This document shows positions 3,301 to 17,923 of a DNA stretch of 29,218 nt, piece after piece; the stretch's first letter is position 1, and each line of letters starts with the position of its first letter. Below the pieces are notes generated by a model. That model was not told the DNA's origin and ran no database searches. It saw nothing but the letters and a program-made list of their open reading frames with translations. The stretch is from a virus: the UHGV virus genome UHGV-0177389; one strand, given 5' to 3'. Both the position numbers and the translations under genes were made by a program.

Positions 3301-3375
3301 AGTTTGTTCCGGCAAAACATTACCTGACGGGATCAGTCCGTTATTAAGATCTTCAGCTTGTGCATAAACTGGCAT
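361..3375 (-). CDS. large internal virion / DNA-ejection protein (1004 aa), T7 gp16-like by position
   Basis: ORF track; ATG at 3375 overlaps the stop of the upstream gene; last and largest gene of the tail/core module; Gly/Ala-rich segments. Confidence 0.55.
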   Translation of the reverse strand: MPVYAQAEDLNNGLIPSGNVLPEQTGFDVALPEGANPEPLPPEPSVWGAAMRQNNILAGFFRPARQFEPVEGYNPYADKNELHGYEYWGAKFADSRSPEETAWIKQQIDDENEDRRLLSDAGVVGTLASIAAGMDPVTVASMFIPGAQGGALARIGSQIAIGAAGTALSEVVLNNQQITRSWGESAAHIAAGAMMSGVFASAGVALSPSVRAAATREVADALDNMSITSATDRAAASLSDGGSVGAMKIDTATLDDLTPVSGGVVGKAAWKAGSYLTPLTRLMESPSKTVRKTTLELAENNFTLKGNERGIETPVAVETRTRGWQREEAAVVVGNKQAYAKYKADGGDMSFDSFRQQVGNAMRSGDVHANPVVQETAQAMRTVLNRVKVEMQKLGLLPPDEELKALGQASYFPRIYKVGKIISERDKFRRILVDWWSRGNKTLDPEDAEIAADIVINKITGAKVPQDFVSVFSVKAAGSTKERTLNVPDSLIRDYLESDVNYVLQRHIREAAAEIELTRTFGKRTMTERLQLIEDEYDSLLREVPEKIKAKYDESVANLKARYESNGEVVPQGKLDSLMRKYEKELRKEQSRLSKSRANDLRDITALRDRLVGTYGMPDDPSSFFVRAGAFLRDVNFTTKLGGMTVSAIPDLARGVMVNGFRNSMKGYASQISQSPAFKASKEEMLKMGIGLETVLHSRSRAIGDLVDSSSRTTAVEAGMERITDAFGKLTLMDRFNDINKSMNGMLTSDGILSGAFSARRMAKLGINDNMAARIRSEFEKHGEVIDGWHIGNFDKWDDQYVAGVFQSAVLKDVNNTIITPGIGDTPLWASTPMGRTIFQFKSFTTASYNRALLGGLQEGTAQFYYGTAFQIALGSLVYALKEASKGKNVDWSPEKLVLEGIDRSGILGPLMEYNNMAEKATGGAVGLGALFGTGTQSRYASRGFVGSLFGPSFGLADSIIDVTAGVLNGDAGDRIVHNVRTLIPGNNLFWIAPLINQVDPVMR

Positions 3376-6092
3376 TATTTAGATCCCCACGAAAAGTAAT
3401 CTTTAAATTTGTCCATACGTTCGTTATGCAGGCGCTGATACTGCTCATCCAGAGCGCGATGCTTGTCTTTGAAGTTTCGTATAGCCTGTCCACGCATAAT
3501 TTCTTCCTGCTCGTACTGCTCCCGTTCCTGCTGCATTTTCTTATAAGGTTCCCAATCTTCTAGTGATGGTTCCCAACGCATAGGACGCCCATGTTTGTTA
3601 TAAAACGGCTGGACCCGATCGATGCCATTTTCATCCTTAGTTCTTACCATAATGGCGTAATCACCATTACGAGGTGTTAACACGTCAGGGGTTATGAATA
3701 ATTCTCCATTAATACGACTCTCAGGGGTTTTTGTCTCAACTACAGGAGCATTACCTGACGTGATCCCAAGCAACGTCGGACTGGTTGTTATAATCTCTTT
3801 GCGCTCACCGTACATCAGCCGTTCTTTTTCAGCTTTCCACTGCGCCGCCTGCCAGCCTGACGGCCCATATTGATAAAGCGCCTCCGGTGCATATTTCATA
3901 AACTGCGCTTCTCCGTTAACCTCGCTGATACTCCAGGTGCGGGCTATCTGCTGGTTGGTCATTTGCTTCGCTACGTCAGCGTTACCACCAGCAACGCGGT
4001 AGTTAATGTCATACAGCGTCTGATAGTCATTACGGAATCTAGCTGCTTCCGGCGTCTGGTCATCCGCAGACGGATCCCAACGGAACCACTGCGCCATATT
4101 GCTGACAGCAGAATTCATCGCCTTGCTGCGATTATTTTTGTACTCTTTTGAACTCTGCGTTGATGCCAATTGAGCTTTAAGAGCATCGGTCTGGTTGTAC
4201 GTCAGGTTCTGCGCCTGCTCGATAGCCGCATCAGCAGACATGCCAGAATCTGTTAGTTGCTTAACAGTCAGATAAAAACCCTGCATATCCTTCGGCATAT
4301 TTCCAATAGATGCATTGTCTGTTTCATATAACCGACTAAACAAATTCGCTGCATTTTTAACCACTTCCTGATTGCTGGATCTGGATACTGCTGAAAGCTG
4401 CGTGATGACCTGCGAAGGCATGATGCCAGTCTGAGCCACAAGCCGAACAACCCCATCATGAGTGGAGGCATCATTAATACGAAAGTTCTGCGCCATTTCT
4501 GTGTAATCAGCAGCTTTCTGCATTGATTTGTTGCTTGGGTCTAATTTTTCACCTATTGTCAGCGCCTCATTGAATCTGCGTGAATCACGTTGCGCCTGAA
4601 TTGCTTCATTTGATCGCTGAAGCAATGCAGACAATTTTCCGTAAGCATCGAGTTTTAACGCATAGTGAGGATCGTTAACCTCAGGCTTCACTTTCTGCAT
4701 TTCTTCTTGCTGCTGAGAAGGAGGTAAATACTGAATTGCCTGGAATATTCTCGCGTTATCAATCGCTATATCCAGTTGATTGATTATTTTATCTGCATTT
4801 TTTCCATACCCCCTGATGATAGTCTCCTGAGCCGGTATATAATCTGGAACCTCACCGTTATATAGCTGGGCCATGGTGTTATTAATAGCTGGCTCAAGCT
4901 GTTCTAATATTAACTTCCTTTGCTTTTCTATCTGACTATTAGCAAGGTTATCTATTTGATAAATAGTCAGCGGATCCATTCCAGTTTTATTTTTTCTATA
5001 TCGGGAAAGCCACCCTTGTGTTTCTGATGGAAGATTTCGGATAAATTCTTCTTCTGATATTTCACCTTTACGTGGATCACCGACTTTGGCGATCAGTTTA
5101 TCCACGTTACCCATCCCCCAGTTATATGCTGCTCCGGTCAATATTTCGGAGCCGTACTTACCATACAGTTGATTTACATAGTCACTGGCGAGCATTTCAT
5201 GCTGTTGTTCGTCCGTAGGGTTGTATTTAACGCCACGCTTGGCCGCCAGTTCTTTCCCTGTGCCCGGCATTAACTGGTATTTCCCCTGGGCTCTCTCTCC
5301 AGAAGATGTTATCGGTCCTTCAAGAAGACTACCATCAGGATTAAAATGTCGATCACCTGATTCAACAAGGCGTATGGCACGCATGTCCATGCCTCCAGAA
5401 TCATTTTTCTGAAACAGACCATTTAGCCATCCTTCTGGATTGGCAGCGGCATAATTCTTCGCCCGCATTTCTGTGGCACGGCGATCATCACTTTCTATTT
5501 CTTCCAGAATGCGTTCTTGTGACCATCCCCTGGCAGCTCCATATCTGGCAATGGCTACCATTCTGGAATTTCTGGCTAAAGTGGCAGTTTGCGGGTCATT
5601 CCAGGCATCCGCTTCATTTTGTATCCATAATTTTCTCGTTGCCTGATATTGCTCATCTTCATAGGCATTTGTCTGCCCTATCTCATGTCTGAGAACTCCA
5701 GTACTGAACTGAATTTTCTGTGTTCTGGCTTGTTGCAAAAACATATTTCTTGCTGCTTCATCAGTCAATGAAGCAGCTATTTCTTCCACATCCTGATCAA
5801 ATCCAGATATGTACTCTTGCCCCTTACCAATCGCATTTTTGCCTTGTTGTGCATAAAAACCGGTTTGAGGGTTATAAAGACGTTCATTGCTGCGCTGATT
5901 AAGCTGAAGGATGGCATCCTGAGACAATGCAACATTCGCTTTCTGCCTGGCTTCACCATATGCCACCGCATACTGATCTGCGACATTCGCCAGCACCTGA
6001 CCTGCTTGAGGAACATCGAAGGTCTGAAAACCACCGGTTTGCACACCACGACTTTGCACCTGGCGTCCGGATACTGTTGGTACGACTGGCAT
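3375..6092 (-). CDS. internal virion protein with soluble lytic transglycosylase (SLT) domain
   Basis: ORF track 3375..6167 trimmed to ATG at 6092, which has GGAGGA 5 nt upstream and overlaps the upstream stop; SLT-like motifs ES...GKYQLM...AAYNWG. Confidence 0.7.
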   Translation of the reverse strand: MPVVPTVSGRQVQSRGVQTGGFQTFDVPQAGQVLANVADQYAVAYGEARQKANVALSQDAILQLNQRSNERLYNPQTGFYAQQGKNAIGKGQEYISGFDQDVEEIAASLTDEAARNMFLQQARTQKIQFSTGVLRHEIGQTNAYEDEQYQATRKLWIQNEADAWNDPQTATLARNSRMVAIARYGAARGWSQERILEEIESDDRRATEMRAKNYAAANPEGWLNGLFQKNDSGGMDMRAIRLVESGDRHFNPDGSLLEGPITSSGERAQGKYQLMPGTGKELAAKRGVKYNPTDEQQHEMLASDYVNQLYGKYGSEILTGAAYNWGMGNVDKLIAKVGDPRKGEISEEEFIRNLPSETQGWLSRYRKNKTGMDPLTIYQIDNLANSQIEKQRKLILEQLEPAINNTMAQLYNGEVPDYIPAQETIIRGYGKNADKIINQLDIAIDNARIFQAIQYLPPSQQQEEMQKVKPEVNDPHYALKLDAYGKLSALLQRSNEAIQAQRDSRRFNEALTIGEKLDPSNKSMQKAADYTEMAQNFRINDASTHDGVVRLVAQTGIMPSQVITQLSAVSRSSNQEVVKNAANLFSRLYETDNASIGNMPKDMQGFYLTVKQLTDSGMSADAAIEQAQNLTYNQTDALKAQLASTQSSKEYKNNRSKAMNSAVSNMAQWFRWDPSADDQTPEAARFRNDYQTLYDINYRVAGGNADVAKQMTNQQIARTWSISEVNGEAQFMKYAPEALYQYGPSGWQAAQWKAEKERLMYGERKEIITTSPTLLGITSGNAPVVETKTPESRINGELFITPDVLTPRNGDYAIMVRTKDENGIDRVQPFYNKHGRPMRWEPSLEDWEPYKKMQQEREQYEQEEIMRGQAIRNFKDKHRALDEQYQRLHNERMDKFKDYFSWGSK

Positions 6093-6637
6093 TATAATCC
6101 TCCGGGTAATCTGGTTCCTGCTGCTGCCCCGATTGGCGCAGGGGTGCTTTGAGTAAACGGACTCCACGTCCCACCAAACATCTGGTACGCACCGTATGCC
6201 TTCAGAGGCGCAGTGAGCAATGTTGTTGCTGATCCCACATTCCCCTGTTTACGGGCTGAACTGGCTTCTGCTTTATAGTTGGCAGCCTGAACCTGATAAC
6301 CGTAAGCCTCGCGTTGCGCGTTATTCACCGTCGTCAGAGAATCAAGAGCGCCAAACTGGGCAGTGTCGCCAAATATATCCAGCGCGTTACCTGTAGATAA
6401 ATCAGCGCCGGTAGCCCCCATTGTCGCCGCCTGTGTACCAAGCCGCTGTCGGGTCTCTCTGCGCCGTTGCTCAGCTTCAGCGTTACCTCTGTTTATTGCA
6501 TCATTTGCCTGAGCAGTGGCTATATCTGCGTTCGCTTCTGCAACCTTCGAGGCATACTTTCCCTGTTGGTACTGGGTGTATGCCTGAATGCCACTCATGG
6601 CGAGCATTGCGCCACCAGCAATAACCGGATCGCACAT
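6092..6637 (-). CDS. internal core protein (181 aa), T7 gp14-like by position
   Basis: ORF track; ATG overlaps upstream stop; GGAGAG upstream; Ala/Gln-rich small protein between tail and large core genes. Confidence 0.45.
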   Translation of the reverse strand: MCDPVIAGGAMLAMSGIQAYTQYQQGKYASKVAEANADIATAQANDAINRGNAEAEQRRRETRQRLGTQAATMGATGADLSTGNALDIFGDTAQFGALDSLTTVNNAQREAYGYQVQAANYKAEASSARKQGNVGSATTLLTAPLKAYGAYQMFGGTWSPFTQSTPAPIGAAAGTRLPGGL

Positions 6638-7101
6638 TATTTTCTCTCCATGTGAAATCTGTGGAAATTAAGACCAAGAGCACCATAAGGCGCGGCTTCT
6701 TCAAGCCTGAATCCAAGCCAGTGCAGCCATGCTTTGGCAACATGGTTTCGCTCGTCGACATAGTTTTCCAGGCGCGGATAAACTGCCAGCATCTGCTGCA
6801 ATACAGGTCGGCAGTGGCGAAGAAATGTCCTCTGATATTTTTCAATACGGCTGGTTCCGACCAGCCAGGGCGTACCATTGCCACCGATCATTGACGCCGG
6901 AGATACGCCAAACATGGTTACCAGTTCTCCGTTCGCGAACCCTGACCAGGCCATAGTCGCAGTGCGCAGACCAACACGCAGCGCATCTTTGGTAGTCATC
7001 AGCGATACCGCATACAGTTCGTCAATATCAGCCTGACGAACATCCGGCAAAATCATCTGAAGATGCTCTTCGGTAGCGGGAATAATTTGAACATCGATCA
7101 T
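6637..7101 (-). CDS. hypothetical virion protein (154 aa), T7 gp13-like by position
   Basis: ORF track; ATGA start/stop overlap with the tail tubular B-like gene. Confidence 0.4.
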   Translation of the reverse strand: MIDVQIIPATEEHLQMILPDVRQADIDELYAVSLMTTKDALRVGLRTATMAWSGFANGELVTMFGVSPASMIGGNGTPWLVGTSRIEKYQRTFLRHCRPVLQQMLAVYPRLENYVDERNHVAKAWLHWLGFRLEEAAPYGALGLNFHRFHMERK

Positions 7102-9572
7102 CAGAATCCCCCAACAGTAAGGCGAGGAATAACGGCAAGAACAGACAGCGGCAACGGATCAAGCTGACGGATTTTTACACGTCCGTTTTTGCCCCAGTTA
7201 CTGTCCAGTTTCACTTCTACTTTTCCGGTAGCATCATCAACAGGATCATCGTAGAACTCGAATTCACGCTGTGGATATTCGTACCATTTACCGCCGGGCG
7301 TAGTCGCCCAGATGCCGCGACTGGCATTCACAACCAGAGTAACGGACGGGATCACCTGTTTTTTGTCCAGCAGCGTTTCCTGTCCGTTAATGTTGATATC
7401 CAGTGTTTCGAATTCAGCAGTTATTGGCAGGCCGATGTGCACAACAGCTCCCGGTGATTCCAGCGTGACGGCACCTCCGGAAACCACTTTCTGTGGCTCC
7501 ACGTTCGCATCAGAGAGAATGTTTACGGTCTGGCCTTCAAGATGAGACAGGCCTCCAAATGTCCGGCGCGCCATCTGCCAGTTCGTGGTGGCCACATTCC
7601 TGAGGGATGGCGGGACGTTCCTGTTAGCGCGAACCACTACAGCGGTATTGCTGGTTACAGAAATAATGTCGCAACGTAATTCTTTTGACACTTCATCGCC
7701 AGTATCAGGATCAGTTCCGACATAAGGGAACTGTAGTTGCGCGCCGACATCACTACTGGTGAAGTACGCACCACCAGAAACACTGATTGTATATTCCGCG
7801 CGATAATCCCATTCGCCAGAACCACCAGTGATGGTCATCGTTCTGTCAGACGTATTTCTTCCATCATAGCTAAGGCCAGAATCAACAAAGAAAGCATCTT
7901 CATCGCTGGTAAATAAACGGCTGGACAGTCGCTCGATGTATCTCACTGTTTGCCCGTTAACGGTTCGGTTAACGACGAAATACACCGCATCTTCATTTCC
8001 TTCGCTGATACTGCATGTGCTTTCATATTTTCCGGTACTGGATTGTGGTGCCCATGCAAAAACCTGCTGATCACGCAAATAGGTCATCACCAGTAATTTA
8101 CCGTCATCACGAATGCAGAAGGCGCTGGAGTAAGGGACAATAGAGAAGCACCAGTCAACAATGCTGTGCTTCTGAAAAAGATGATTGGCAAGGATGGTCA
8201 GGTCGTTCCCCTGATAGCCGTCAACATCGAATGAGTAGGCCAGATCACGGACAACACTGCCTTTCTCCTGGACGAACAGAGCAATATTCGCCACGGCAAT
8301 TGGTGGGACATTGCTCGAGCCATTTGATCCCTGAGAGCTGAATGCAAATGATGATGGGGTTAACACTTTGTTCTGGTCGCCGGTGATGACGTACTCACCT
8401 CCGGAAGTCAGTGCCACCAGCGAACCGACATCAATCAGGTGGCGGATCTCATTAACCTGACGCCCGGCATAGGTGTAGATAATTCTGTCGTTATCCTGCG
8501 TAGGATTGCTTTTGCCAAAATCCTTATAATCCCCGGTACGGCTGGCCCAGATAGTCTGAGGAAACGCAGTCGATGCGGCGAAGTAAAGACGTTGTTGATA
8601 ATAAACAACAGTGCCAGGATAACCATTAACACTGTTCCAGGCATATTTAGCCCATTTATAGCTGGCATTATCCTCGCCAACGACCTGCGAAGGGATATAG
8701 GAAATCACCTCGGCAGTTGCAGTAGTGCCGTTTACAGCAGTGATACGGGCAATGCCAAACCCACTGTGCAGATACTCCCACTCAATGCCAGTATCATCAT
8801 CACCGGATCCGCCCCAGCCATCCCATGATGTGCCTTCTGTATGCGAAGGGCGCAAAGTACCAGTTTTGCCTGCTGTAACGGCGCGATAGTAGTTACTGTC
8901 TGCACGGCGAATATCGCCAATCGACGTACTCTTACTGGTTTCCCATACCGGCACTGAATCCACTGCTGGCTGTTCCAGATAGAACAATTTGCCTACCTGC
9001 TCCGCGCCAAAAATAGAGGCGCTTGCCGTTAACGTAATTGTCCCGGTGCTGGCGCTGGCATAAACCGTCACTGACTCGTCAATATTGATATCTTCAAATG
9101 GCCCGTTCTTCGTTACCACATCAACCAGTTGCCAGTTGTCATGCGCATAGCGACGCAACTCTTTCGGCGGGTATGCCGGGTGAACCAGCGTAAGCACGTC
9201 GGCGCTTTGCGTGAATTTAATTCGGAACAGATCGGCTTCAGTATATGGCGTGGCAATTTCATAAATAACATTGCTGCTGTTCAGCACCAACGCACCATCT
9301 TTGATAACGCGCATGTACTGGTGTCCGAACTCCAGAGCATAAGTCTGAACCGTCGAGAACTGGAACGGGATCAGGCGGCATTTCCGATTTGGGTATTTGG
9401 CGGCACCGACAAAACGCGTACCAGGTCGATTCTCAACGCCGCCATACTGCCGCACGATAAAGTTATCGCACTTGCGCAATGCCACCTGGTACTTCGCCAT
9501 GTCGATACGACCGTACAACGACGGTCCAATCTCACCACCGGCAAAGCTGGGCTGGATCCAACTGATAGCCAT
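7101..9572 (-). CDS. tail tubular protein B-like (nozzle), 823 aa
   Basis: ORF track; size and position immediately after the gp11-like adaptor; start overlaps upstream stop. Confidence 0.5.
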   Translation of the reverse strand: MAISWIQPSFAGGEIGPSLYGRIDMAKYQVALRKCDNFIVRQYGGVENRPGTRFVGAAKYPNRKCRLIPFQFSTVQTYALEFGHQYMRVIKDGALVLNSSNVIYEIATPYTEADLFRIKFTQSADVLTLVHPAYPPKELRRYAHDNWQLVDVVTKNGPFEDINIDESVTVYASASTGTITLTASASIFGAEQVGKLFYLEQPAVDSVPVWETSKSTSIGDIRRADSNYYRAVTAGKTGTLRPSHTEGTSWDGWGGSGDDDTGIEWEYLHSGFGIARITAVNGTTATAEVISYIPSQVVGEDNASYKWAKYAWNSVNGYPGTVVYYQQRLYFAASTAFPQTIWASRTGDYKDFGKSNPTQDNDRIIYTYAGRQVNEIRHLIDVGSLVALTSGGEYVITGDQNKVLTPSSFAFSSQGSNGSSNVPPIAVANIALFVQEKGSVVRDLAYSFDVDGYQGNDLTILANHLFQKHSIVDWCFSIVPYSSAFCIRDDGKLLVMTYLRDQQVFAWAPQSSTGKYESTCSISEGNEDAVYFVVNRTVNGQTVRYIERLSSRLFTSDEDAFFVDSGLSYDGRNTSDRTMTITGGSGEWDYRAEYTISVSGGAYFTSSDVGAQLQFPYVGTDPDTGDEVSKELRCDIISVTSNTAVVVRANRNVPPSLRNVATTNWQMARRTFGGLSHLEGQTVNILSDANVEPQKVVSGGAVTLESPGAVVHIGLPITAEFETLDININGQETLLDKKQVIPSVTLVVNASRGIWATTPGGKWYEYPQREFEFYDDPVDDATGKVEVKLDSNWGKNGRVKIRQLDPLPLSVLAVIPRLTVGGF

Positions 9573-10896: not shown

Positions 10897-11334
10897 TTAA
10901 CCAGTTACTTTTGAGCGGATCGGATACGGCGTATTGGCATCAACATCAAGACTGATACCAGCAGTGAATTCGCCAGCCGTTAGTGGGCCAGTTGCGACGG
11001 AGTAGTTAACACGCAGATATCGCTGAACACCGGCAGGCACCTTTGCAGAAACAACTCGTTTACCTGCTGTCAGGGCGGTCTTTGCCAGTGCGCCACTATC
11101 ATAAATAGTGGTCCATGAGCTGTTATTCTCACTCGTCTGCAACTGGATGTTTACAGTTGCATCACCGCTTGCCGCGGCGGCTGTGTTAACCAGCGCCCAA
11201 AACTCAAGCGGGTAACCCACGCCGATATCACGACGTTTTCCGTCAATTGGACCGAGATCGATTACGTCAGTAGAAGCCGCGGTATTCGTAACCGCCTGAG
11301 CTTCGGAGAACATCAACAGTTTGTCGGTGATCAT
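10897..11334 (-). CDS. hypothetical virion protein (145 aa), possible capsid decoration protein
   Basis: ORF track; GGAGAAAG RBS; immediately downstream of the major capsid gene; Thr/Ala/Ser-rich. Confidence 0.45.
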   Translation of the reverse strand: MITDKLLMFSEAQAVTNTAASTDVIDLGPIDGKRRDIGVGYPLEFWALVNTAAAASGDATVNIQLQTSENNSSWTTIYDSGALAKTALTAGKRVVSAKVPAGVQRYLRVNYSVATGPLTAGEFTAGISLDVDANTPYPIRSKVTG

Positions 11335-11349
11335 CTTCTTTCTCCATTA

Positions 11350-11369
11350 GTGGGTCTGTTACGACCCAC
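11350..11369 (-). other. stem-loop downstream of the capsid gene (GTGGGTC/GACCCAC), no U-tract
   Basis: 7-bp inverted repeat with 6-nt loop seen in sequence, 17 nt after the capsid stop; possible RNA stability or partial termination element. Confidence 0.3.
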
Positions 11370-11385
11370 AGGTTAATAACAGGCG

Positions 11386-12372
11386 TTACACCACGCGGGC
11401 TTCTGTTTCCAGAAGCGCATCAGTTTCACGGATTGGTACACCACGGAATGAAGTCCACCACTCGCCTTCTGTCTCTTTTACGCTGATCGCCAGAGATGTT
11501 TTCTCCAGAGATTGCAGATCAAGAGCCTGGCCTACAGTGCGGTTCATGTAGAACACCGGGCGACCCATGCCACGATTTGGAATGCGATGCAGTGCTTTAA
11601 CCATCAACTTCGCAATATTTGCGGCAGAGGAAGGTTCTGAAAGATTGCTGACATCGATGTTTGCAATGCGAACAACATAACGCCAGTCACGCAGAGCAAG
11701 TCCGTTGTCCCATTTGTAATGGGTACGGTAGCCTTCGTACTTGCCGCCATTCGCATCTTCCAGTGTCACCTGGCCTTTATCTTCCATCTGGATGCCAGCC
11801 TTCTGCCCTTTCGGGAAGATGCCATGCACGGTGTTTTCGCCCCACACCACTAACCAGATTGAGGTGTTATCTGTACCCGTGCCACCAGCATCAATGATGT
11901 TCTGAGCATTACCCGCAGACAGGCTGGAATAGCGGGAGGACAGTCCCATAAACTGCTGAGGGTTAACGCTGGAATCACCATAAAACAGCGTCTGCGCCAT
12001 CTGCTGATTCATCGCTTCAATAAATGCGCGGTCTTCAGACAGGCGGAATTCAGCGGTATTGCCGTTCAGATCAGCCAGTGACTTATCGACTTCAGCATAG
12101 GTTTCCAGCATGCCAACGGAATCGGTTACCTGCACTGTGGTTGATTTGCTTGGCTGTACGCCATAGTTCAGCAAACGCCAGGTAGCTGAAGGTAAACCAG
12201 AACGAATGGTGGTTCGGTGTCCGGTAGGAAGGTTCCCTTCGACAAAAGGCATATCCTGAAGGATCGGGTTAGTTTGACCGAGAAGCTCGATAATCTTATC
12301 GACTTTCCCGTTTGGATCGACGCGCTTACCCCAGTCAGCCAGCGTTAGCGCAGTTAAGCCTTTAACAGCCAT
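11386..12372 (-). CDS. major capsid protein
   Basis: ORF track 11386..12378; second ATG at 12372 is better spaced from the GAGAGG RBS; about 330 aa, follows the scaffold gene. Confidence 0.7.
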   Translation of the reverse strand: MAVKGLTALTLADWGKRVDPNGKVDKIIELLGQTNPILQDMPFVEGNLPTGHRTTIRSGLPSATWRLLNYGVQPSKSTTVQVTDSVGMLETYAEVDKSLADLNGNTAEFRLSEDRAFIEAMNQQMAQTLFYGDSSVNPQQFMGLSSRYSSLSAGNAQNIIDAGGTGTDNTSIWLVVWGENTVHGIFPKGQKAGIQMEDKGQVTLEDANGGKYEGYRTHYKWDNGLALRDWRYVVRIANIDVSNLSEPSSAANIAKLMVKALHRIPNRGMGRPVFYMNRTVGQALDLQSLEKTSLAISVKETEGEWWTSFRGVPIRETDALLETEARVV

Positions 12373-12386
12373 TGTCATTTCCTCTC

Positions 12387-13082
12387 TTATTTGCCATAGA
12401 GCACTTCGGCCGCACTACGCTGGCCTTCATTACCACCGGTGACCATGCCATCTTCAGACATCGCCTTTCCGATTTTCACGAACGTTTTGACCAGATCAGG
12501 GTGATTACCCAGCCCGGTGGTGTTCAGATATTCTTTGAGTTCAGGTGTCCCGAACTGGTCAAGCGCACGCTGTGCGGCGCTAAGGTTAGAAATCAACTTG
12601 TCGCCACCGATTTCTTTGTCAGCTTTTACATCCGCAGCCCACTGCTCGGTTGTTTTCTGCCAGGCTTCTGCCTGGCGCTGCTGAACACCTGCCAGAATCT
12701 TCGGATAAGCATCAACCAGCTTTTGCGCTTGCTCGTTGGTCAGGTTAAGTTCTCGCGCCACAGGCTCGAATTCCTTCAACGCTTCTGTATCCAGCTCTAC
12801 GCCTTCGGCAGCCTGAAACTCGTACTTCTCAGGCGCACCCTCTGGTTTATTGCCGTCCTTTTTTTCATCCTGCTTATCGTTTTCAGGCTTTTTGTCATCA
12901 GCAGGTTTATCGCCATCAGCAACAGGTTGTGGCTTATCACCTTCCTGTTGTGATGGATCACCAACTGGAGCAGGGTTATCACCTGCAGGCGCTGACGGTT
13001 CTGACGCAGCCGGAGCTGCTCCACCATCGACTGGTTGCTCATTGCAAAGACGGCGATACAGCAAACGCTCAAATAAATTCAT
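12387..13082 (-). CDS. scaffolding protein
   Basis: ORF track 12387..13088 (GTG) trimmed to ATG at 13082 with AGGAG 5 nt upstream; acidic, Pro/Ala/Asp/Lys-rich N-terminal half; lies between portal and capsid genes. Confidence 0.55.
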   Translation of the reverse strand: MNLFERLLYRRLCNEQPVDGGAAPAASEPSAPAGDNPAPVGDPSQQEGDKPQPVADGDKPADDKKPENDKQDEKKDGNKPEGAPEKYEFQAAEGVELDTEALKEFEPVARELNLTNEQAQKLVDAYPKILAGVQQRQAEAWQKTTEQWAADVKADKEIGGDKLISNLSAAQRALDQFGTPELKEYLNTTGLGNHPDLVKTFVKIGKAMSEDGMVTGGNEGQRSAAEVLYGK

Positions 13083-13084
13083 GA

Positions 13085-13381
13085 TCACTCCTGTTCACTG
13101 GCCTCTTTGGCCATCTTCAAATACTGTTCAGGGCAATGCGCCATAACGCGCTGAAACAGTTCCAGCGCCAGATTGCGTTGCCCCTCATTAAATGCCATTG
13201 CCATAGCGTCCATCGGTGAGATAGCGGAAAACACACGGCCTTTCTCCAGCACCGACCAGACAACGCGACGCCCCTGTTCACTGCTCATGACAAAGCGAAT
13301 GTCATCAATTTCACGCTGCGCCATGTCACGTTGCTTACGGGCGTTTTCTTCTTTCAGTTGATCGTCTTCGTAATCTGTCAT
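13085..13381 (-). CDS. hypothetical protein (98 aa)
   Basis: ORF track; ATGA overlap with the portal stop. Confidence 0.45.
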   Translation of the reverse strand: MTDYEDDQLKEENARKQRDMAQREIDDIRFVMSSEQGRRVVWSVLEKGRVFSAISPMDAMAMAFNEGQRNLALELFQRVMAHCPEQYLKMAKEASEQE

Positions 13382-15057
13382 TGTGATTGCCCACCCTGAC
13401 CACTAACTGCATTCGCCATAGCTGACAAAACACTCGGATCCGAAGTTTTAGCTTCGCTTAGCGTCTTGGCACCCTGTGCCGCCGCCATTCCCATCGCCAT
13501 CATTTGTTGCTGCTGTTGCTGCTGTGCCCGTTGCTGGCGAGCCTGCTCAACCTGTTCCTGCGGAACAATGACGGTTGGAGACACTCCGGACATATCAGCG
13601 AATGCATCGATCGCCTGATCAACATTGAGTTTGTCGAGAGCTTCTGGTTTCGCTTGCGCAAGTTGACCAATGAAGTTGACCGTAGACGCCAGACTGGACA
13701 GGCCGATAGACTTCTGCGCCTGAGCCATGACGGAAATGTATTCGACCTTCAGGGGCATACCTTCCATCGCGTCAGGCGGTGGCGGCAGCATGTTTTTACG
13801 CACCATCATCGAGAAAGAGCGGTCAATGAGAGGATTAAGACATTCGTCGTTCAGACGCTCCAGAACCGGCCCCAACATCAGAAGTTTTTCTTCTTTCATT
13901 TCGATCACCGCTTCAACAGGCATCGAGCGGGTATTGATGTTCTGCAACATCATGAACAGATCGACAAAGTAGGCGCTGTTAATGATTTGACGGGTGTCCT
14001 GAATGTCTGCCACCAAATCTGCTGTACTGGGGTTAACCAGATAAGCAGGCCTGAAACCATCCTGACCAGTAATCTGATCGATATACGTGATGTCGCCAGG
14101 AAGAAGGGAGGCACGCTGATTCTTGAGGGAAGTCGGAGCAACCATCGGCGGATTGGTGGCTTTATCAATCAACTCCGACTTGCGCTTCTGGAGAAGCTGC
14201 AATGCCTTAACAGGTCCAAGCGCCAGCATACCCGGGCATGATGATCCATAAACATCTTCACCGTTAACTTCCCAGCGCGGAGCCATAATTGGAAACTCAT
14301 CGAATCCGGACTCACGCAACAACTTGTCGTTATCGCCACCAACCTCGTAATAAACCGATTTGAATGGCTTGTTCTTGCTATCCAGCTTCGATGTATCGCG
14401 GTCAATGTTCGGGTAAACCGAATGCATCACTTCAATCCACTTCTCGTAGGTGCCGCTTTCCCACATGCTTTTTACGGATTCGCTGACGTTATTTAGCCCG
14501 AACTCCTGAACAAGCTGACGAACAGTCATAGAGAACTTGCGAAAACAGGTGTCCACACTGCCACGAGGTGAGTTAGCCAGGTAGTAACTGCCTATCGGGA
14601 ATGGCATTGTGCGAATGATGTCCTCGTCATCCTCCAGCACTGCCATTGCACCAGTGCTGTATGTGCCGAGGCTTCCGTATAACTGCGGCAGCGACTGATA
14701 GAGATTCGACTTATTGAACATATCGTTCATACGGTTCTGCACCGCCTCAAGCCACAACTTAACAGGGCCATAATCCATCATTTCAGGATCTGGCGTAGCC
14801 AGGCGAAACCACGGACGCGCGGGGCTTGTGATGCCTGACATCATGCCGCTGGCGAGAGTGCGCGCCGCCATAGTCCCGGTCGAATCAATAATGCGTGTAT
14901 TGCGTCGATCGTTACGGTTGACCTCAGAAGTCAGAAAGCGGGAACCACGCGGGTTGATGTAATCACTCAACTCGCGCCAGTGCGGCTCGAACGACTGACG
15001 CTCGCTTTCAAGTTGTGCGAACTGTTTGTTCAATCGCTCTTTAGTTGTTTCCGCCAT
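13378..15057 (-). CDS. portal protein (559 aa)
   Basis: ORF track; GGAG RBS 8 nt upstream; size and position between terminase and scaffold/capsid; poly-Gln/Ala C-terminus. Confidence 0.75.
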   Translation of the reverse strand: MAETTKERLNKQFAQLESERQSFEPHWRELSDYINPRGSRFLTSEVNRNDRRNTRIIDSTGTMAARTLASGMMSGITSPARPWFRLATPDPEMMDYGPVKLWLEAVQNRMNDMFNKSNLYQSLPQLYGSLGTYSTGAMAVLEDDEDIIRTMPFPIGSYYLANSPRGSVDTCFRKFSMTVRQLVQEFGLNNVSESVKSMWESGTYEKWIEVMHSVYPNIDRDTSKLDSKNKPFKSVYYEVGGDNDKLLRESGFDEFPIMAPRWEVNGEDVYGSSCPGMLALGPVKALQLLQKRKSELIDKATNPPMVAPTSLKNQRASLLPGDITYIDQITGQDGFRPAYLVNPSTADLVADIQDTRQIINSAYFVDLFMMLQNINTRSMPVEAVIEMKEEKLLMLGPVLERLNDECLNPLIDRSFSMMVRKNMLPPPPDAMEGMPLKVEYISVMAQAQKSIGLSSLASTVNFIGQLAQAKPEALDKLNVDQAIDAFADMSGVSPTVIVPQEQVEQARQQRAQQQQQQQMMAMGMAAAQGAKTLSEAKTSDPSVLSAMANAVSGQGGQSQ

Positions 15058-15071
15058 TTCAATGACTCCGG

Positions 15072-15278
15072 TTACTGACCAAGCAGCGTTTTACCGCTGG
15101 TATTAGCGGTTGATGTGTCGCCCTGAGAACCGGTAAGCAGCGTAGAACTACGACCAGCAGCAGCGCGACGGCGACGAGTTTCTTCGTCGCGGGCATCAAC
15201 AACGGCGGCATCCTGCTCCTGTGGTGCTGCCTGAACTTCTGGTGTTGCAGGCACTGATGGTGAGCTACCCATGCACAT
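15072..15278 (-). CDS. small hypothetical protein (68 aa), low complexity
   Basis: ORF track; start context GGAGTCATTGATATG nearly identical to the portal start context GGAGTCATTGAAATG. Confidence 0.35.
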   Translation of the reverse strand: MCMGSSPSVPATPEVQAAPQEQDAAVVDARDEETRRRRAAAGRSSTLLTGSQGDTSTANTSGKTLLGQ

Positions 15279-15346
15279 ATCAATGACTCCGTACGCAATT
15301 AAATTATTACCAATTTAACCACATATGATTTATTTATCGTAGATGG

Positions 15347-15383
15347 TTGACATTTAATGCACGAATTATTACCCTTCAGGTAA
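15347..15383 (+). promoter_or_regulatory. TTGACA -35-like hexamer followed by a perfect TTACC-N5-GGTAA operator-type palindrome (15369-15383)
   Basis: Seen in sequence; the palindrome matches the immunity-region operators; strand of the promoter is uncertain. Confidence 0.35.
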
Positions 15384-15705
15384 GTAAATAGTTCATTCCG
15401 GTTATTAACCTGACTGGCTTGTCGTTAAATTGAACAGGTGGAGTGAGCTTTTATTTTGAGCAGTACGGCGTATGGCACATGCGCCGATAGCGGTCTGGAT
15501 ACGTTTAAGGGGCACCCTCCCTTGCTCGGGCAAACGAACCAGGTAGCCGGAATGTGCAAGTCGAGCGGTTTTATTCCGCGCACGGGGATTCACCATCCCG
15601 GCGATTCGGTGTGACGCCTCGGAAGAGACGAGGGTGCAACGATGAGAGCATTTATGGAGCCGCGACAAAGTGTGGCGCCTTAACAGGCTAAGTGCTCTCA
15701 GCGTT

Positions 15706-15782
15706 GTGGCATTAGCTCAGTTGGACAGAGCAACCGCCTTCTAAGCGGTTGGTCGCAGGTTCGAATCCTGCATGCCACGCCA
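15706..15782 (+). tRNA. tRNA-Arg (anticodon UCU)
   Basis: Manual cloverleaf: 7-bp acceptor stem GTGGCAT/ATGCCAC, D arm GCTC...GAGC, anticodon stem ACCGC/GCGGT with loop CTTCTAA (anticodon TCT), T arm GCAGG-TTCGAAT-CCTGC, encoded CCA. Confidence 0.9.
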
Positions 15783-15825
15783 GAATCACGCCTAAGGACC
15801 GTGATGCCAGAAGTTCCAGGGGCTT

Positions 15826-15867
15826 GGCGGTGATGGTTTCCCTTGAAGGACTATCACCGCCCTTTTT
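15826..15867 (+). terminator. intrinsic terminator candidate downstream of the tRNA
   Basis: 9-bp stem GGCGGTGAT/ATCACCGCC followed by TTTTT. Confidence 0.55.
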
Positions 15868-15945
15868 ACAGCAGGACGCCATTGCGATGACTTCATGCTG
15901 TAAACCAGTACAGCCACGGAAGGCATAACTCATTGCTTCCAGTTC

Positions 15946-15969
15946 GCCCGGTTCGCCGGGCATTTTTTT
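15946..15969 (+). terminator. intrinsic terminator candidate (GCCCGG-TTCG-CCGGGC plus T7 run)
   Basis: 6-bp GC stem with TTCG tetraloop followed by ATTTTTTT, ending about 16 nt before the ATG at 15986. Confidence 0.6.
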
Positions 15970-15985
15970 AAGGTGAGATTAGACT

Positions 15986-16357
15986 ATGAGTGACAAAGAC
16001 ATTGAATCTGAAATTCAGGCTAAAGGTTTAGCCGCGCCGCGCGTTACGCCAGACCATATCGAGAGCATTATTGCTCAGGAGGCATATTTCACAGCAGAAG
16101 ATGGTGTCTTTGGCGTAGCCATAAAAGCGAAACATACTGGCGGAGAGGTAAACTACCAGCCGCACGAATCACTTTCTCTGCTGACGTTCTGCGTTCTGGT
16201 GCTGCGCAACGGCTTCACCGTCACCGGAGAGAGCGCCTGTGCAAGCCCGGAAAACTTTGATGCGGAAATTGGTCGGAAGATTGCCCGGCAGAATGCTGTA
16301 AACAAAATCTGGATGCTTGAAGGTTACTTGCTGAAGCAGAAGTTAAGCGAGCAATAA
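15986..16357 (+). CDS. hypothetical protein (123 aa), opposite-strand moron inside the morphogenesis module
   Basis: ORF track; ATG preceded by AAGGTGAGA; followed by a palindrome and a terminator; function unknown. Confidence 0.55.
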   Translation: MSDKDIESEIQAKGLAAPRVTPDHIESIIAQEAYFTAEDGVFGVAIKAKHTGGEVNYQPHESLSLLTFCVLVLRNGFTVTGESACASPENFDAEIGRKIARQNAVNKIWMLEGYLLKQKLSEQ

Positions 16358-16361
16358 CACC

Positions 16362-16373
16362 GTGACATGTCAC
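16362..16373. repeat. perfect 12-bp palindrome GTGACATGTCAC, copy 1 (14-bp identity CGTGACATGTCACA with copy 2)
   Basis: Seen in sequence; lies between the 123-aa ORF stop and the terminase large subunit stop. Confidence 0.6.
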
Positions 16374-16377
16374 AAAC

Positions 16378-16404
16378 AGCCAGCCGATGAGCTGGCTTTG
16401 TTTT
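16378..16404 (+). terminator. intrinsic terminator candidate
   Basis: Stem AGCCAGC/GCTGGCT with 6-nt loop followed by TTGTTTT. Confidence 0.6.
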
Positions 16405-16447
16405 ATCCTCACCAGAGGATATCTCCGTCATTATCCCCGCTAACGGA

Positions 16448-17923
16448 TTAAGCATAGGGATCGTAATCTGTAATGGCCTTGCCTTGCTGGTTCTGCTGCC
16501 CGGGAATTCGCAGACGCTTAGACACAGGGAACGCAAACGTCAGCAGTAGCGCATCGCCTTTACCCGGCGAACGCCCAAGCCGCTCCTTGATATCTTCCTT
16601 CGGTTCGATAACGATTTTACCGTCCACTCGAACTTTGTACTCTGCCGCCGACAGGTCGTCTGCTGTTTCCTGGTCATCCAGCATCCCGCCCAGCCTCAGC
16701 CATGTCTTGCATGAGTTGAACATCTCCCCACGCTTGTTGAGCATCTGCGGGTCAGTAGACGCGCCACCGAACGGAACAAGTTGCCATGTACGACCCCAGC
16801 CGTCACCGATTGACTTCAGACCAGTTCCGTAACCGAAGTCGATGAACACTGCGTCAGCCTGGTACTGGTCTTCAAAGTCAGCGATACGCTTCGCCATTAT
16901 CAGATCGTCAGTGGTCTTGTTGCCAGTCCACAGCACCTTACTGTGCAGCCCCTGCCGCAGGTATATCACAGCGTCATCAACTCCGGAGTATGCCGGGTCA
17001 ACGCCGATTATCACCGGAGCATGTGCAACCTGCGCAGCGGTTACCACCCGTTTCATTGCCTCATCAGTAAGACCGGTAGGGATAAACTGCAATTCAGATG
17101 CATCAGGGAATATGCCGCGCACACGGATTTTAACGAAGTCGCTGTCTTCCCCGTAGTCATCAACCCATTTCTGCAACTGCTGTTTGTTAGTACCTTCCAC
17201 CGTCCGGCTGTCAATCTGCGCAGTTTTCCAGCGGTGTTTGTATTTGCGGAAACATTCGCGAAAACGCCCGGTATTACGTGTAGGGTTTCCGAACGCCACC
17301 CAGATAATCTCAGTGTCTTCGTCCGTAAGCGCACCCTCAGCAACTTCCCACACCAGATCCGCAATGTTCGACGCTTCATCGAATACCACGATGATGCGTT
17401 TGCGCTCGTTGTGTAGTCCGGCGAATGCCTCAGTGTTGTGCTCAGACCAGGGGATTGCGTCAGCTCGCCACCGCTTGTCGTGCCCAGGATCATTGCTGTA
17501 CATCGCAGTAGCGGTACAGGTAAACCAGTCTTTCGTGATAGCAAGGTTCGACCACTTGATAATTTCCGGCCAGGTCTTCGTTCGTAGCTGGTTGTCGGTG
17601 TTGGCGGTCACCACGACCTTACAATCCTCGCAAGTGGACATGCCCCAGTTGATCAGCATTGAGATGAATGCGGATTTACCAATACCGTGACCAGAAGCGC
17701 GTGCCAGCATAAGCGGCTGATAGCGCGTCTCTGGATTCTGCAGGTGATCACGTATCTCTCGGAACGCATCAGCCTGCCACTGACGTGGGCCGGTAGCATG
17801 TGCCAGTTCAGTCCCCTCTTCCCCCCACGGGAACGCATAGAGGGCATAGCCAAGCGGATCGTGAGTGAACCCTGCAATATCCTCGATCAACTGCTCTTCA
17901 GGAGATAACGCTGTATCTGTCAC
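16448..17923 (-). CDS. terminase large subunit
   Basis: ORF track (GTG start overlapping the terS stop); Walker A-like GHGIGKS and Walker B-like IIVVFDEAS; 491 aa, upstream of portal. Confidence 0.85.
   Translation of the reverse strand: MTDTALSPEEQLIEDIAGFTHDPLGYALYAFPWGEEGTELAHATGPRQWQADAFREIRDHLQNPETRYQPLMLARASGHGIGKSAFISMLINWGMSTCEDCKVVVTANTDNQLRTKTWPEIIKWSNLAITKDWFTCTATAMYSNDPGHDKRWRADAIPWSEHNTEAFAGLHNERKRIIVVFDEASNIADLVWEVAEGALTDEDTEIIWVAFGNPTRNTGRFRECFRKYKHRWKTAQIDSRTVEGTNKQQLQKWVDDYGEDSDFVKIRVRGIFPDASELQFIPTGLTDEAMKRVVTAAQVAHAPVIIGVDPAYSGVDDAVIYLRQGLHSKVLWTGNKTTDDLIMAKRIADFEDQYQADAVFIDFGYGTGLKSIGDGWGRTWQLVPFGGASTDPQMLNKRGEMFNSCKTWLRLGGMLDDQETADDLSAAEYKVRVDGKIVIEPKEDIKERLGRSPGKGDALLLTFAFPVSKRLRIPGQQNQQGKAITDYDPYA

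Follow-up and report, generated by a model that had tools for sequence, protein, structure and literature searches.

The locus

The viral DNA UHGV-0177389 (29,218 nt; hereafter the window, to which coordinates and strands refer unless another locus is named) contains a plus-strand unit that is embedded between the minus-strand terminase and gp3/portal genes. This island comprises a structured RNA of 173 nt (the core), a gene for tRNA-Arg(UCU), intrinsic terminators and an open reading frame (ORF) of 123 codons (ORF123). A first-pass annotation of the locus had pointed to the tRNA, two tandem terminators and the ORF, and had missed the core at 15464-15636, which is the most unusual part of the island. 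The window is a phiV10-like (Uetakevirus) phage or prophage; over positions 15059-16460 it shares 99.3% identity with Escherichia phage phiV10 and with O157 typing phages 9 and 10. The genes that flank the island are:

13378-15057, minus strand: portal gene
15072-15278, minus strand: gp3-like ORF
16448-17923, minus strand: terL

The structured RNA core

The core and its pairings, as described by covariance model R1 and the underlying alignment, are:

15464-15636, plus strand: conserved structured RNA core, 173 nt
15466-73/15479-86, plus strand: helix P1
15491-98 with 15539-42 and 15546-49, plus strand: helix P2
15585-88/15596-99, plus strand: helix P5
15617-21/15629-33, plus strand: helix P6
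15475-78/15554-57, plus strand: pseudoknot PK1
15591-94/15608-11, plus strand: pseudoknot PK2

Five helices and two pseudoknots were scored in an alignment of 27 core sequences, all of less than 93% identity, in which 96.5% of the cells are paired and 11 pairs show double changes. None of 500 shuffles matches the observed score, and structures slid by 1-3 columns are only about 30% paired. R1 matches the window once (15464-15636, 144.6 bits) and gives 100 full-length matches in 100 sources; among the 80 distinct sequences that these represent, 96.7% of the cells are paired, and double changes are seen for 14 pairs and 231 cells. The pseudoknot that joins the P5 loop to bases further downstream changes from CACC/GGUG to AACC/GGUU in 15 sequences and is never broken (pair CG:58/AU:15). 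Covariation therefore demonstrates the fold of the core. Between the covarying helices lie invariant single-stranded blocks (GGCAC, AGCGGUC, GGUAGCCGGAAUGUGCAAG, CACCA, GGCG, GGUGUGAC and GGAAGAG), and the core holds about 55 invariant positions in all.

It is very improbable that this conservation reflects minus-strand coding, either by the phiV10 coding sequence PhiV10p04 (15712-15963) or by an 87-aa ORF at 15405-15668, or a DNA signal such as a packaging site or late promoter. Such a reading can draw on the proximity of the terminase genes and on the phiV10 annotation itself, since PhiV10p04 (minus strand, 83 aa) matches PHROG 4647 with an E-value of 9e-54. This coding sequence, however, runs antisense over the whole tRNA gene and the terminators T1 and T2 described below, and neither ORF has a Pfam match. 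Moreover, pairs in the core change in a compensatory manner, its G-U pairs are valid for the plus strand only, its variable loops take insertions and deletions of any length, and the copies of the element in PL leaders and in the P1 ban operon have no terminase gene anywhere near them. PhiV10p04 is probably a spurious gene call on which a PHROG family has been built.

Searches of Rfam 15 with positions 14500-17000 (E<=1) return the tRNA only. At E<=10, positions 15380-15990 give only RyhB, sau-6072 and anti-hemB matches (12.9-18.1 bits, far below gathering), all on 15893-15969 in the T2 region and none on the core, which is also unmatched by Rfam in nine related loci. We found no description of the core in the literature, a check that does not extend to the candidates of a 10,006-member phage RNA catalogue (PMC10690425). 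The 173-nt RNA thus appears to be an undescribed and widespread family.

Occurrence of the core in other genomes

The 240 nt upstream of the tRNA are 71-83% identical to unannotated DNA in unrelated phages. Carriers of the core include the lambdoid phages cdtI, mEp460, mEp390, 1720a-02, 2H10 and Ayreon, Stx2c-converting and some Stx2a-converting phages, P1, P7, D6, SJ46 and RCS47, Klebsiella phage SopranoGao, and a phage listed for Stenotrophomonas. At least 120 IMG/VR contigs contain the 14-mer CCGGAATGTGCAAG, and about 105 among the matches listed carry the whole element. Chance matches dominate when genome contigs are scanned with the same 14-mer, and 1 of 120 among the matches listed is genuine (Kosakonia sacchari). 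Of 5426 complete E. coli genomes, 1064 contain the core, 276 places being on plasmids, and PGAP annotates nothing over it in these 1064 genomes apart from the adjacent tRNA-Arg.

In cdtI, mEp460, 1720a-02, mEp390, BUCT708 and Stx2a_WGPS2 the core comes after the cI terminator, and in the first five of these, the ones examined for it, the core also lies after a PL promoter, which is of the TTGACA type in cdtI, mEp390 and BUCT708. The OL region shares words of at least 9 nt with OR in four of the five (mEp460, 1720a-02, mEp390 and BUCT708), while that of cdtI is operator-like by eye only. The position of the core in these lambdoid phages is that of the PL leader. In cdtI the core precedes the early-left operon (orf39, YfdQ etc. 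up to xis), and no N gene is annotated in the operon behind the core either in this phage, where Q is present, or in Stx2a_WGPS2, which has the same layout. Lambdoid phage LLS is without an N homolog and may use a put-like RNA (PMC12315714); phage 2H10, named in the same study as the closest relative of LLS by Q protein, carries the core.

P1 carries its core in the ban operon, which is under C1 control, 14 nt beyond tRNA-Ile2 and immediately ahead of ban. Here, and at locus L090, it is the direct 5' untranslated region and runs straight into a Shine-Dalgarno (SD) sequence and an ORF. Every core context that can be interpreted therefore points to an early, repressor-controlled transcript. At the stricter of two thresholds, 65 of 105 loci among the matches listed have a strong terminator on the same strand no more than 750 nt downstream of the core, against 12 of 105 for the opposite strand; counting at -9 kcal/mol does not discriminate between the strands (97 of 105 forward and 85 of 105 reverse, among the same matches).

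Other observations were made at these loci. One IMG/VR contig (L038) has two tandem cores about 650 nt apart in the same orientation (3997-4154 and 4804-4959, minus strand). Salmonella phages of the epsilon15 type retain a terminator and an Acb4-like ORF, and the epsilon15 record annotates an 'RNaseIII' site there on the opposite strand. In cdtI, matches to C4 antisense RNA (68 bits) and isrK (60 bits) lie upstream of a Rha-like regulator (L009 277-478, minus strand), and correspond to a c4/ant immunity module of the P1 type within the rightward early region of these lambdoid phages.

The predicted promoter and operator

A candidate promoter and operator precede the core in the window:

15348-15376, plus strand: predicted sigma-70 promoter, read from the sequence (-35 TTGACA at 15348-15353, 17-nt spacer, -10 TACCCT at 15371-15376)
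15369-15383: putative repressor operator TTACCCTTCAGGTAA, a palindrome that overlaps the -10 hexamer as well as the predicted start site
15369, 18516, 18534, 22407, 22469, 24415, 24752, 24800, 25512 and 25574: copies of TTACC-N5-GGTAA

The motif TTACC-N5-GGTAA thus has 10 copies in the window, against 0.48 expected, and 0 of 100 shuffles reach this number. Five copies are found around the cro-like and helix-turn-helix repressor genes at 24.4-25.6 kb, two lie upstream of terS (18516 and 18534), and by eye all of them are apparently in or near gaps between the longest ORFs. TTACC-N5-GGTAA looks like the immunity operator of the phage and, given the sites upstream of terS, the terminase operon would also be under direct repressor control. 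Both the -35 hexamer and the operator are kept in relatives (loci L022, L106, L128 and L080), with a different spacer. In addition, the GenBank record of epsilon15 annotates 'repressor, lysogeny' in what is, by its position at the same distance from the gp3 start, the corresponding region. Because the phage operator overlaps the -10 hexamer, we infer that the predicted promoter is active only when the repressor is absent, the unit being silent in a lysogen and firing on induction or infection, which would be the opposite of a classical moron.

Between the gp3 start and this promoter lies a stretch (15281-15347, AAATTATTACCAATTTAACCA…) that is 82-86% conserved across the genus while its neighbours vary; the gp3-portal operon may have its leftward promoter there. 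No clear promoter hexamers are identifiable in 15281-15347; the conserved interval 15281-15383 could hold a separate leftward promoter.

The leader behind the core

The features downstream of the core, apart from ORF123, are:

15637-15706, plus strand: module A, a long hairpin CAACGAUGAGAGCA…UGCUCUCAGCGUUG with a 14-bp stem around a variable insert (-34.1 kcal/mol, z-score -5.0)
15706-15782, plus strand: tRNA-Arg(UCU), anticodon TCT (called by ARAGORN; Rfam RF00005, 73.3 bits against a gathering threshold of 29)
15785-15806, plus strand: trailer hairpin AUCACG-CCUAAGGAC-CGUGAU after the tRNA, conserved in many loci and weak alone (-5.9 kcal/mol, z -0.9)
15826-15869 (scan 15826-15861), plus strand: terminator T1, a 14-bp stem followed by CUUUUUAC (-22.8 kcal/mol, z -4.4)
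15866-15903, plus strand: conserved hairpin (-12 kcal/mol, z -2.9)
15887-15928, plus strand: mini-ORF MTSCCKPVQPRKA of 13 codons with its stop, beginning inside this hairpin
15946-15969 (scan 15946-15961), plus strand: terminator T2, GCCCGG-UUCG-CCGGGC followed by AUUUUUUU (-12.7 kcal/mol, z -3.4)
16378-16404 (scan 16378-16397, plus strand): terminator T3 at the convergence of ORF123 (plus) and terL (minus), with a good U-tract on the plus strand (-13 kcal/mol)

Taken together, the leader is best described as an untranslated string, about 600 nt long, of RNA modules with long-range stems that ends in terminators and has a protein gene behind it. The arms of module A covary between phages, its insert ranges from 42 to about 110 nt, and its last pair uses nucleotide +1 of the tRNA. 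The tRNA has its 3' CCA encoded in the sequence (…ATGCCACGCCA) and is followed by the trailer hairpin, T1, the further hairpin and T2, in this order. The ARAGORN and Rfam results bear out the plus-strand tRNA that the first-pass annotation had placed between minus-strand genes, and the tandem terminators that it had proposed are likewise recovered, by the scan, by their stabilities and by their sequence conservation. T1, T2 and T3 all consist of a G+C-rich hairpin with an immediate U-tract, as expected of intrinsic terminators. The scan reports four sites in the region, where shuffled sequences give 1.9 +/- 1.4, and by itself this number is weak evidence; T1 and T2 are backed by their stability and by conservation across many phages, a T1-type terminator following the core in most non-P1 loci and T2 being conserved in relatives directly before the SD sequence. 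On the minus strand T3 forms a stable hairpin (-15 kcal/mol) with a poor U-tract; in the phiV10 annotation it figures as the terminase terminator, and it may be active in both directions. The late transcript may run antisense through the tRNA, as the first-pass annotation had assumed, but a bidirectional T3, the operator sites upstream of terS (18516 and 18534) and a possible leftward promoter in 15281-15383 all call for caution on this point.

The presence of the tRNA varies: phiV10, SPN9TCW and the ST512 phage of Klebsiella have it in the slot, and E15, Kp4865-1 and Tyrion do not. In other phages the tRNA slot holds a GUGGUGAAUGCGC…CACCGG-CACCACAAC unit and a terminator. At locus L049, module B together with T1 (1183-1390, minus strand) gives a full-length match to the Rfam family STnc100 (RF02076) of 38.4 bits, below the gathering threshold of 47, and no match to STnc100 is obtained in the window. 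The L049 match suggests that small RNAs (sRNAs) of the STnc100/PasD type may be modules of such phage leaders. A further full-length, sub-threshold STnc100 match lies in P1 between upl and tciA (L008 1558-1677). In addition, the tRNA slot of L120 contains a 127-nt element (1077-1203, minus strand) whose score on the tRNA model, 43.9 bits, exceeds gathering but which ARAGORN does not call. It could be either a tRNA-like RNA or a tRNA that has taken up a large insertion.

AGA codons occur at 7.4 per 1000 in the ORFs of the window, and at roughly 2 per 1000 in E. coli. It is plausible that tRNA-Arg supplements their decoding. AGA is concentrated in the replication genes and in the large tail/tailspike ORFs, the latter with 10, 14, 3, 2 and 4 codons across 361-9572, minus strand (10 in 361-3375 and 14 in 3375-6167), and is absent from the head, portal and terminase genes (10897-17923, minus strand). 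This skew may reflect a different origin or different expression needs of the tail module.

ORF123 and the cargo slot

15971-16357, plus strand: SD sequence AAGGUGA (15971-15977) and ORF123 (15986-16357, 123 aa; PF13876)

The ATG of ORF123 lies 24 nt past the T2 stem and, as the first-pass annotation had it, 16 nt past the end of the T2 U-tract. That this ORF is real is supported by its match to Pfam family PF13876 (Phage_gp49_66), which extends over the whole profile (1-82 of 82) with an E-value of 2.4e-35 and 121.3 bits against a cut-off of 27; membership in PF13876 is solid. A phmmer search relates ORF123 to PDB entry 9E4W, 'anti-CBASS 4 (Acb4)', with an E-value of 0.0068. Acb4 of phage SPO1 is a tetrameric sponge for 3'3'-cGAMP, its family has been equated with PF13876, and 3'3'-cGAMP binding was observed for all eight PF13876 homologs tested (Chang et al., PMC11722364). 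ORF123 aligns to the beta3-alpha4 region of SPO1 Acb4 (ENF-x-EIGR). Of the contact residues reported for SPO1 Acb4 (K36, F48, E49, V56, Y57, F62, N63, I66, T70 and K81; PMC11722364), which we mapped on the phmmer alignment, F48, F62 and I66 are kept in ORF123, and N63, a backbone contact, is replaced by D. ORF123 is probably an Acb4-family cyclic-dinucleotide (anti-CBASS) sponge. PADLOC gives no matches for ORF123 or gp3.

The genes behind T2 differ between phages and start at a conserved UUUUUUU-AAGGUGA-(5-10 nt)-AUG junction. A Klebsiella relative has a Tad2-like protein (PF11195), another nucleotide sponge, in the same slot, and the slot of other relatives is occupied by proteins without assigned function, some of them apparently membrane-anchored. 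Given the Acb4-family and Tad2-like occupants, the slot behaves as a hot spot for anti-defence or accessory genes. Neither the tRNA nor the Acb4-family gene is of a new kind; each adds a member to a known one. At loci L046, L019, L041, L122 and L106 a further TTACC-N5-GGTAA-like operator (e.g. GTTACCTTGAAGGTAAG) replaces the SD-ATG junction after T2, so that apparently membrane-anchored cargo genes (hydrophobic stretches, by eye) seem to own a repressor-controlled promoter.

The first-pass annotation had regarded the arrangement as acquired cargo with read-through or attenuation-type control of ORF123, and had drawn attention to a 13-codon mini-ORF just upstream of the T2 hairpin. Developed into a full model, in which the island is an acquired moron expressed from the prophage and ORF123 is attenuated by way of the mini-ORF before the UUCG terminator, this reading is improbable. 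It is true that the unit, like morons of the Hendrix type, has its own predicted promoter (15348-15376) and terminators, ending with T3, between conserved morphogenesis genes, and that its accessory cargo varies among relatives; the exchangeable protein slot at the SD-ATG junction and the variable presence of the tRNA agree with the idea of cargo to this extent. Morons, however, are typically expressed from a repressed prophage, whereas the promoter predicted here carries the immunity operator. Furthermore, the same slot between terL and gp3/portal is used in Salmonella phages E15, SPN1S/SPN9TCW and PAT1, in Klebsiella Kp4865-1 and ST512-KPC3phi13.3, and in Enterobacter Tyrion, the island being syntenic across Uetakevirus of E. 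coli, Salmonella, Klebsiella and Enterobacter. Because this position is shared and the GC content is not deviant (0.498 for the island and 0.493 for the window), the island as a whole is best seen as a conserved genus-wide framework, mostly of non-coding RNA and ancestral to the genus, rather than as a recent acquisition.

The mini-ORF itself does have 13 codons and lies upstream of the T2 hairpin, at 15887-15928 and not, as first placed, 9 nt away at 15878-15919. Its ATG is conserved, which would favour a role in attenuation, but this is explained by the conserved hairpin 15866-15903 in which the ATG lies. In relatives the mini-ORF has between 5 and more than 30 codons, shows insertions and deletions that are not multiples of three, and is without an SD sequence; peptide-type attenuation is therefore unlikely, and we see no credible leader peptide here. 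Local attenuation by pairing of a trailer hairpin arm with the T1 5' arm was considered separately and rejected because this complementarity is not conserved in relatives.

Comparison with known systems

The closest parallel to the core is provided by the putL and putR sites of phage HK022. In the lambdoid phages without an annotated N the core is likewise an RNA just downstream of a repressor-controlled PL, and in both systems intrinsic terminators follow and are succeeded by genes that need to be expressed. HK022 put acts in cis on RNA polymerase, at a distance and without protein factors (PMC9378689), and a put-like action at a distance would tolerate the variable spacing of the core. The two RNAs nevertheless differ, put having about 70 nt, two stem-loops and two copies (PL and PR) and the core 173 nt, five helices, two pseudoknots and a single copy. 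R1 has no match in a 12-kb stretch of HK022 (record 24000-36000), which should span the early region. Unlike put, the core is also found in the morphogenesis region of podoviruses and in the P1 ban operon. On the grounds of its size, fold and copy number, and of the lack of an R1 match in the HK022 stretch searched, we place the core outside the put family.

The core shares its PL leader position with lambda nutL, and its helix P6 (CCUCG-GAAGAGA-CGAGG) superficially resembles boxB. The lambda nutL boxB hairpin is GCCCU-GAAGA-AGGGC, with a loop of 5 nt in place of the 7 nt of P6. A boxA/boxB nut site is not supported, because boxA-like words (GCUCUUU) occur only in some module A variants, where they are base-paired, and because neither cdtI nor Stx2a_WGPS2 has an annotated N-like protein. 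A riboswitch was rejected because the distance between core and T1 varies by hundreds of nt, with interchangeable modules in between; a CsrA sponge, because GGA motifs are at chance frequency (about 7 in 520 nt, by eye); and a retron, CRISPR or omega-RNA-type guide, because there is no associated protein gene.

STnc100/PasD and tRNA 3' external transcribed spacer (3'ETS) sRNAs offer another parallel, as they are leader RNAs of prophages, have an intrinsic terminator at their end and build up as sRNAs that bind Hfq. The slot of STnc100/PasD holds tRNA-Arg and a terminator-ended trailer in the window. The STnc100/PasD copies that have been described come from late (Q-side) regions (bioRxiv 10.64898/2026.05.13.724894).

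A proposed mechanism

We consider it rather probable that the island is a conserved, repressor-controlled rightward unit of phiV10/epsilon15-like phages, with a structured leader and with Acb4-family cargo behind T1 and T2. On removal of the phage repressor, the predicted promoter, with the operator over its -10, would switch on and yield a transcript containing in turn the 173-nt pseudoknotted domain, the variable-insert hairpin, tRNA-Arg(UCU), the trailer up to T1, and T2. T2 abuts the conserved SD/ATG junction, and interchangeable accessory genes are found behind it; in the window, the Acb4-family sponge would soak up CBASS cyclic dinucleotides. The core would act in cis on the transcribing polymerase, by put-like processive antitermination or by anti-Rho protection on the long untranslated leader. 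A fraction of the transcripts would then pass T1 and T2 into the accessory gene, and the terminated ones would supply the tRNA and a trailer sRNA.

Some read-through is required because ORF123 sits behind two terminators; the first-pass annotation had likewise named read-through, next to attenuation-type control. The spacing between core and terminators varies by hundreds of nt, which fits an element that modifies the elongating polymerase in the manner of HK022 put. That the core in cis is what lets RNA polymerase pass T1 and T2 is the mechanism that we prefer, although as a tentative proposal it falls short of probable.

Several observations weigh against parts of this account. The promoter at 15348-15376 is not listed by a consensus promoter scan, because its weak -10 hexamer fits at only three of six positions. 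Five contact residues of SPO1 Acb4 are substituted in ORF123, which also has an N-terminal extension (123 aa compared with 96): E49 is changed to T, V56 to C, Y57 to A and T70 to I, while K36 and K81 fall outside the aligned region, the extrapolated register placing L65 at K36 (K36 to L). Because several contact residues differ, the ligand of ORF123 is uncertain. The core occupies one place per phage record, with no copy on the PR side. P1-type loci have the core without any terminator behind it, so that terminator read-through cannot be its only role. Epsilon15 (L010 1549-1619) and VB_ST_E15 (L003 2035-2105) retain a 71-nt core remnant (37 bits) without the tRNA, and epsilon15 is viable. Finally, the STnc100-like Hfq sRNA module in the leader of relatives fits an operon of stable RNAs equally well.

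Such an operon is the most serious alternative, although we think it somewhat unlikely. The core would be processed, by RNase P at the tRNA 5' end and by other nucleases, into a discrete early RNA acting in trans (a ribonucleoprotein component, a decoy or an anti-defence RNA), together with the tRNA and a trailer sRNA that ends at a terminator; T1 and T2 would be true ends, and ORF123 would be expressed only by leak-through. The roughly 55 invariant positions and two pseudoknots do resemble those of partner-binding RNAs, and the adjoining modules are of kinds that accumulate, namely the tRNA and, in relatives, the STnc100-like sRNA. The stem of module A ends exactly at the tRNA 5' end, the P1 core has no terminator to overcome, and one IMG/VR locus carries the core in tandem. 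Against this stand the lack of a defined 3' end after the core, which in P1 and L090 is followed directly by the SD sequence and ORF, the absence of a co-occurring partner protein gene, and the fact that the core consistently heads operons whose downstream genes need expression.

The cis-acting reading can be extended beyond the island, with doubtful standing at present. The core would then be a new class of cis-acting RNA that renders polymerase termination-resistant without a dedicated phage protein, replacing N/nut in lambdoid phages that lack N, including Stx2c- and some Stx2a-converting phages of E. coli O157:H7, and reused by epsilon15-like podoviruses and P1-like phage-plasmids to express early accessory and anti-defence genes through built-in terminators.

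Implications

A strongly conserved, pseudoknotted RNA that occurs in about one-fifth of complete E. coli genomes, as well as in Shiga-toxin phages and P1-like phage-plasmids, has no annotation and no Rfam family. It heads repressor-controlled early operons, at the position where lambda has nutL and HK022 has putL, and is therefore a testable candidate for the means by which lambdoid phages without N pass their early terminators. Because xis lies downstream in cdtI, passage of these terminators would also gate excision. The position of the core suggests that the control of early phage transcription by RNA has a further, new variant; if the core acts in trans, it would instead be a new early phage non-coding RNA. 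Moreover, the island indicates how temperate phages may bring a tRNA, small RNAs and anti-defence genes for nucleotide sponges (Acb4 and Tad2) together behind one early promoter, with a standard junction into which cargo is plugged.

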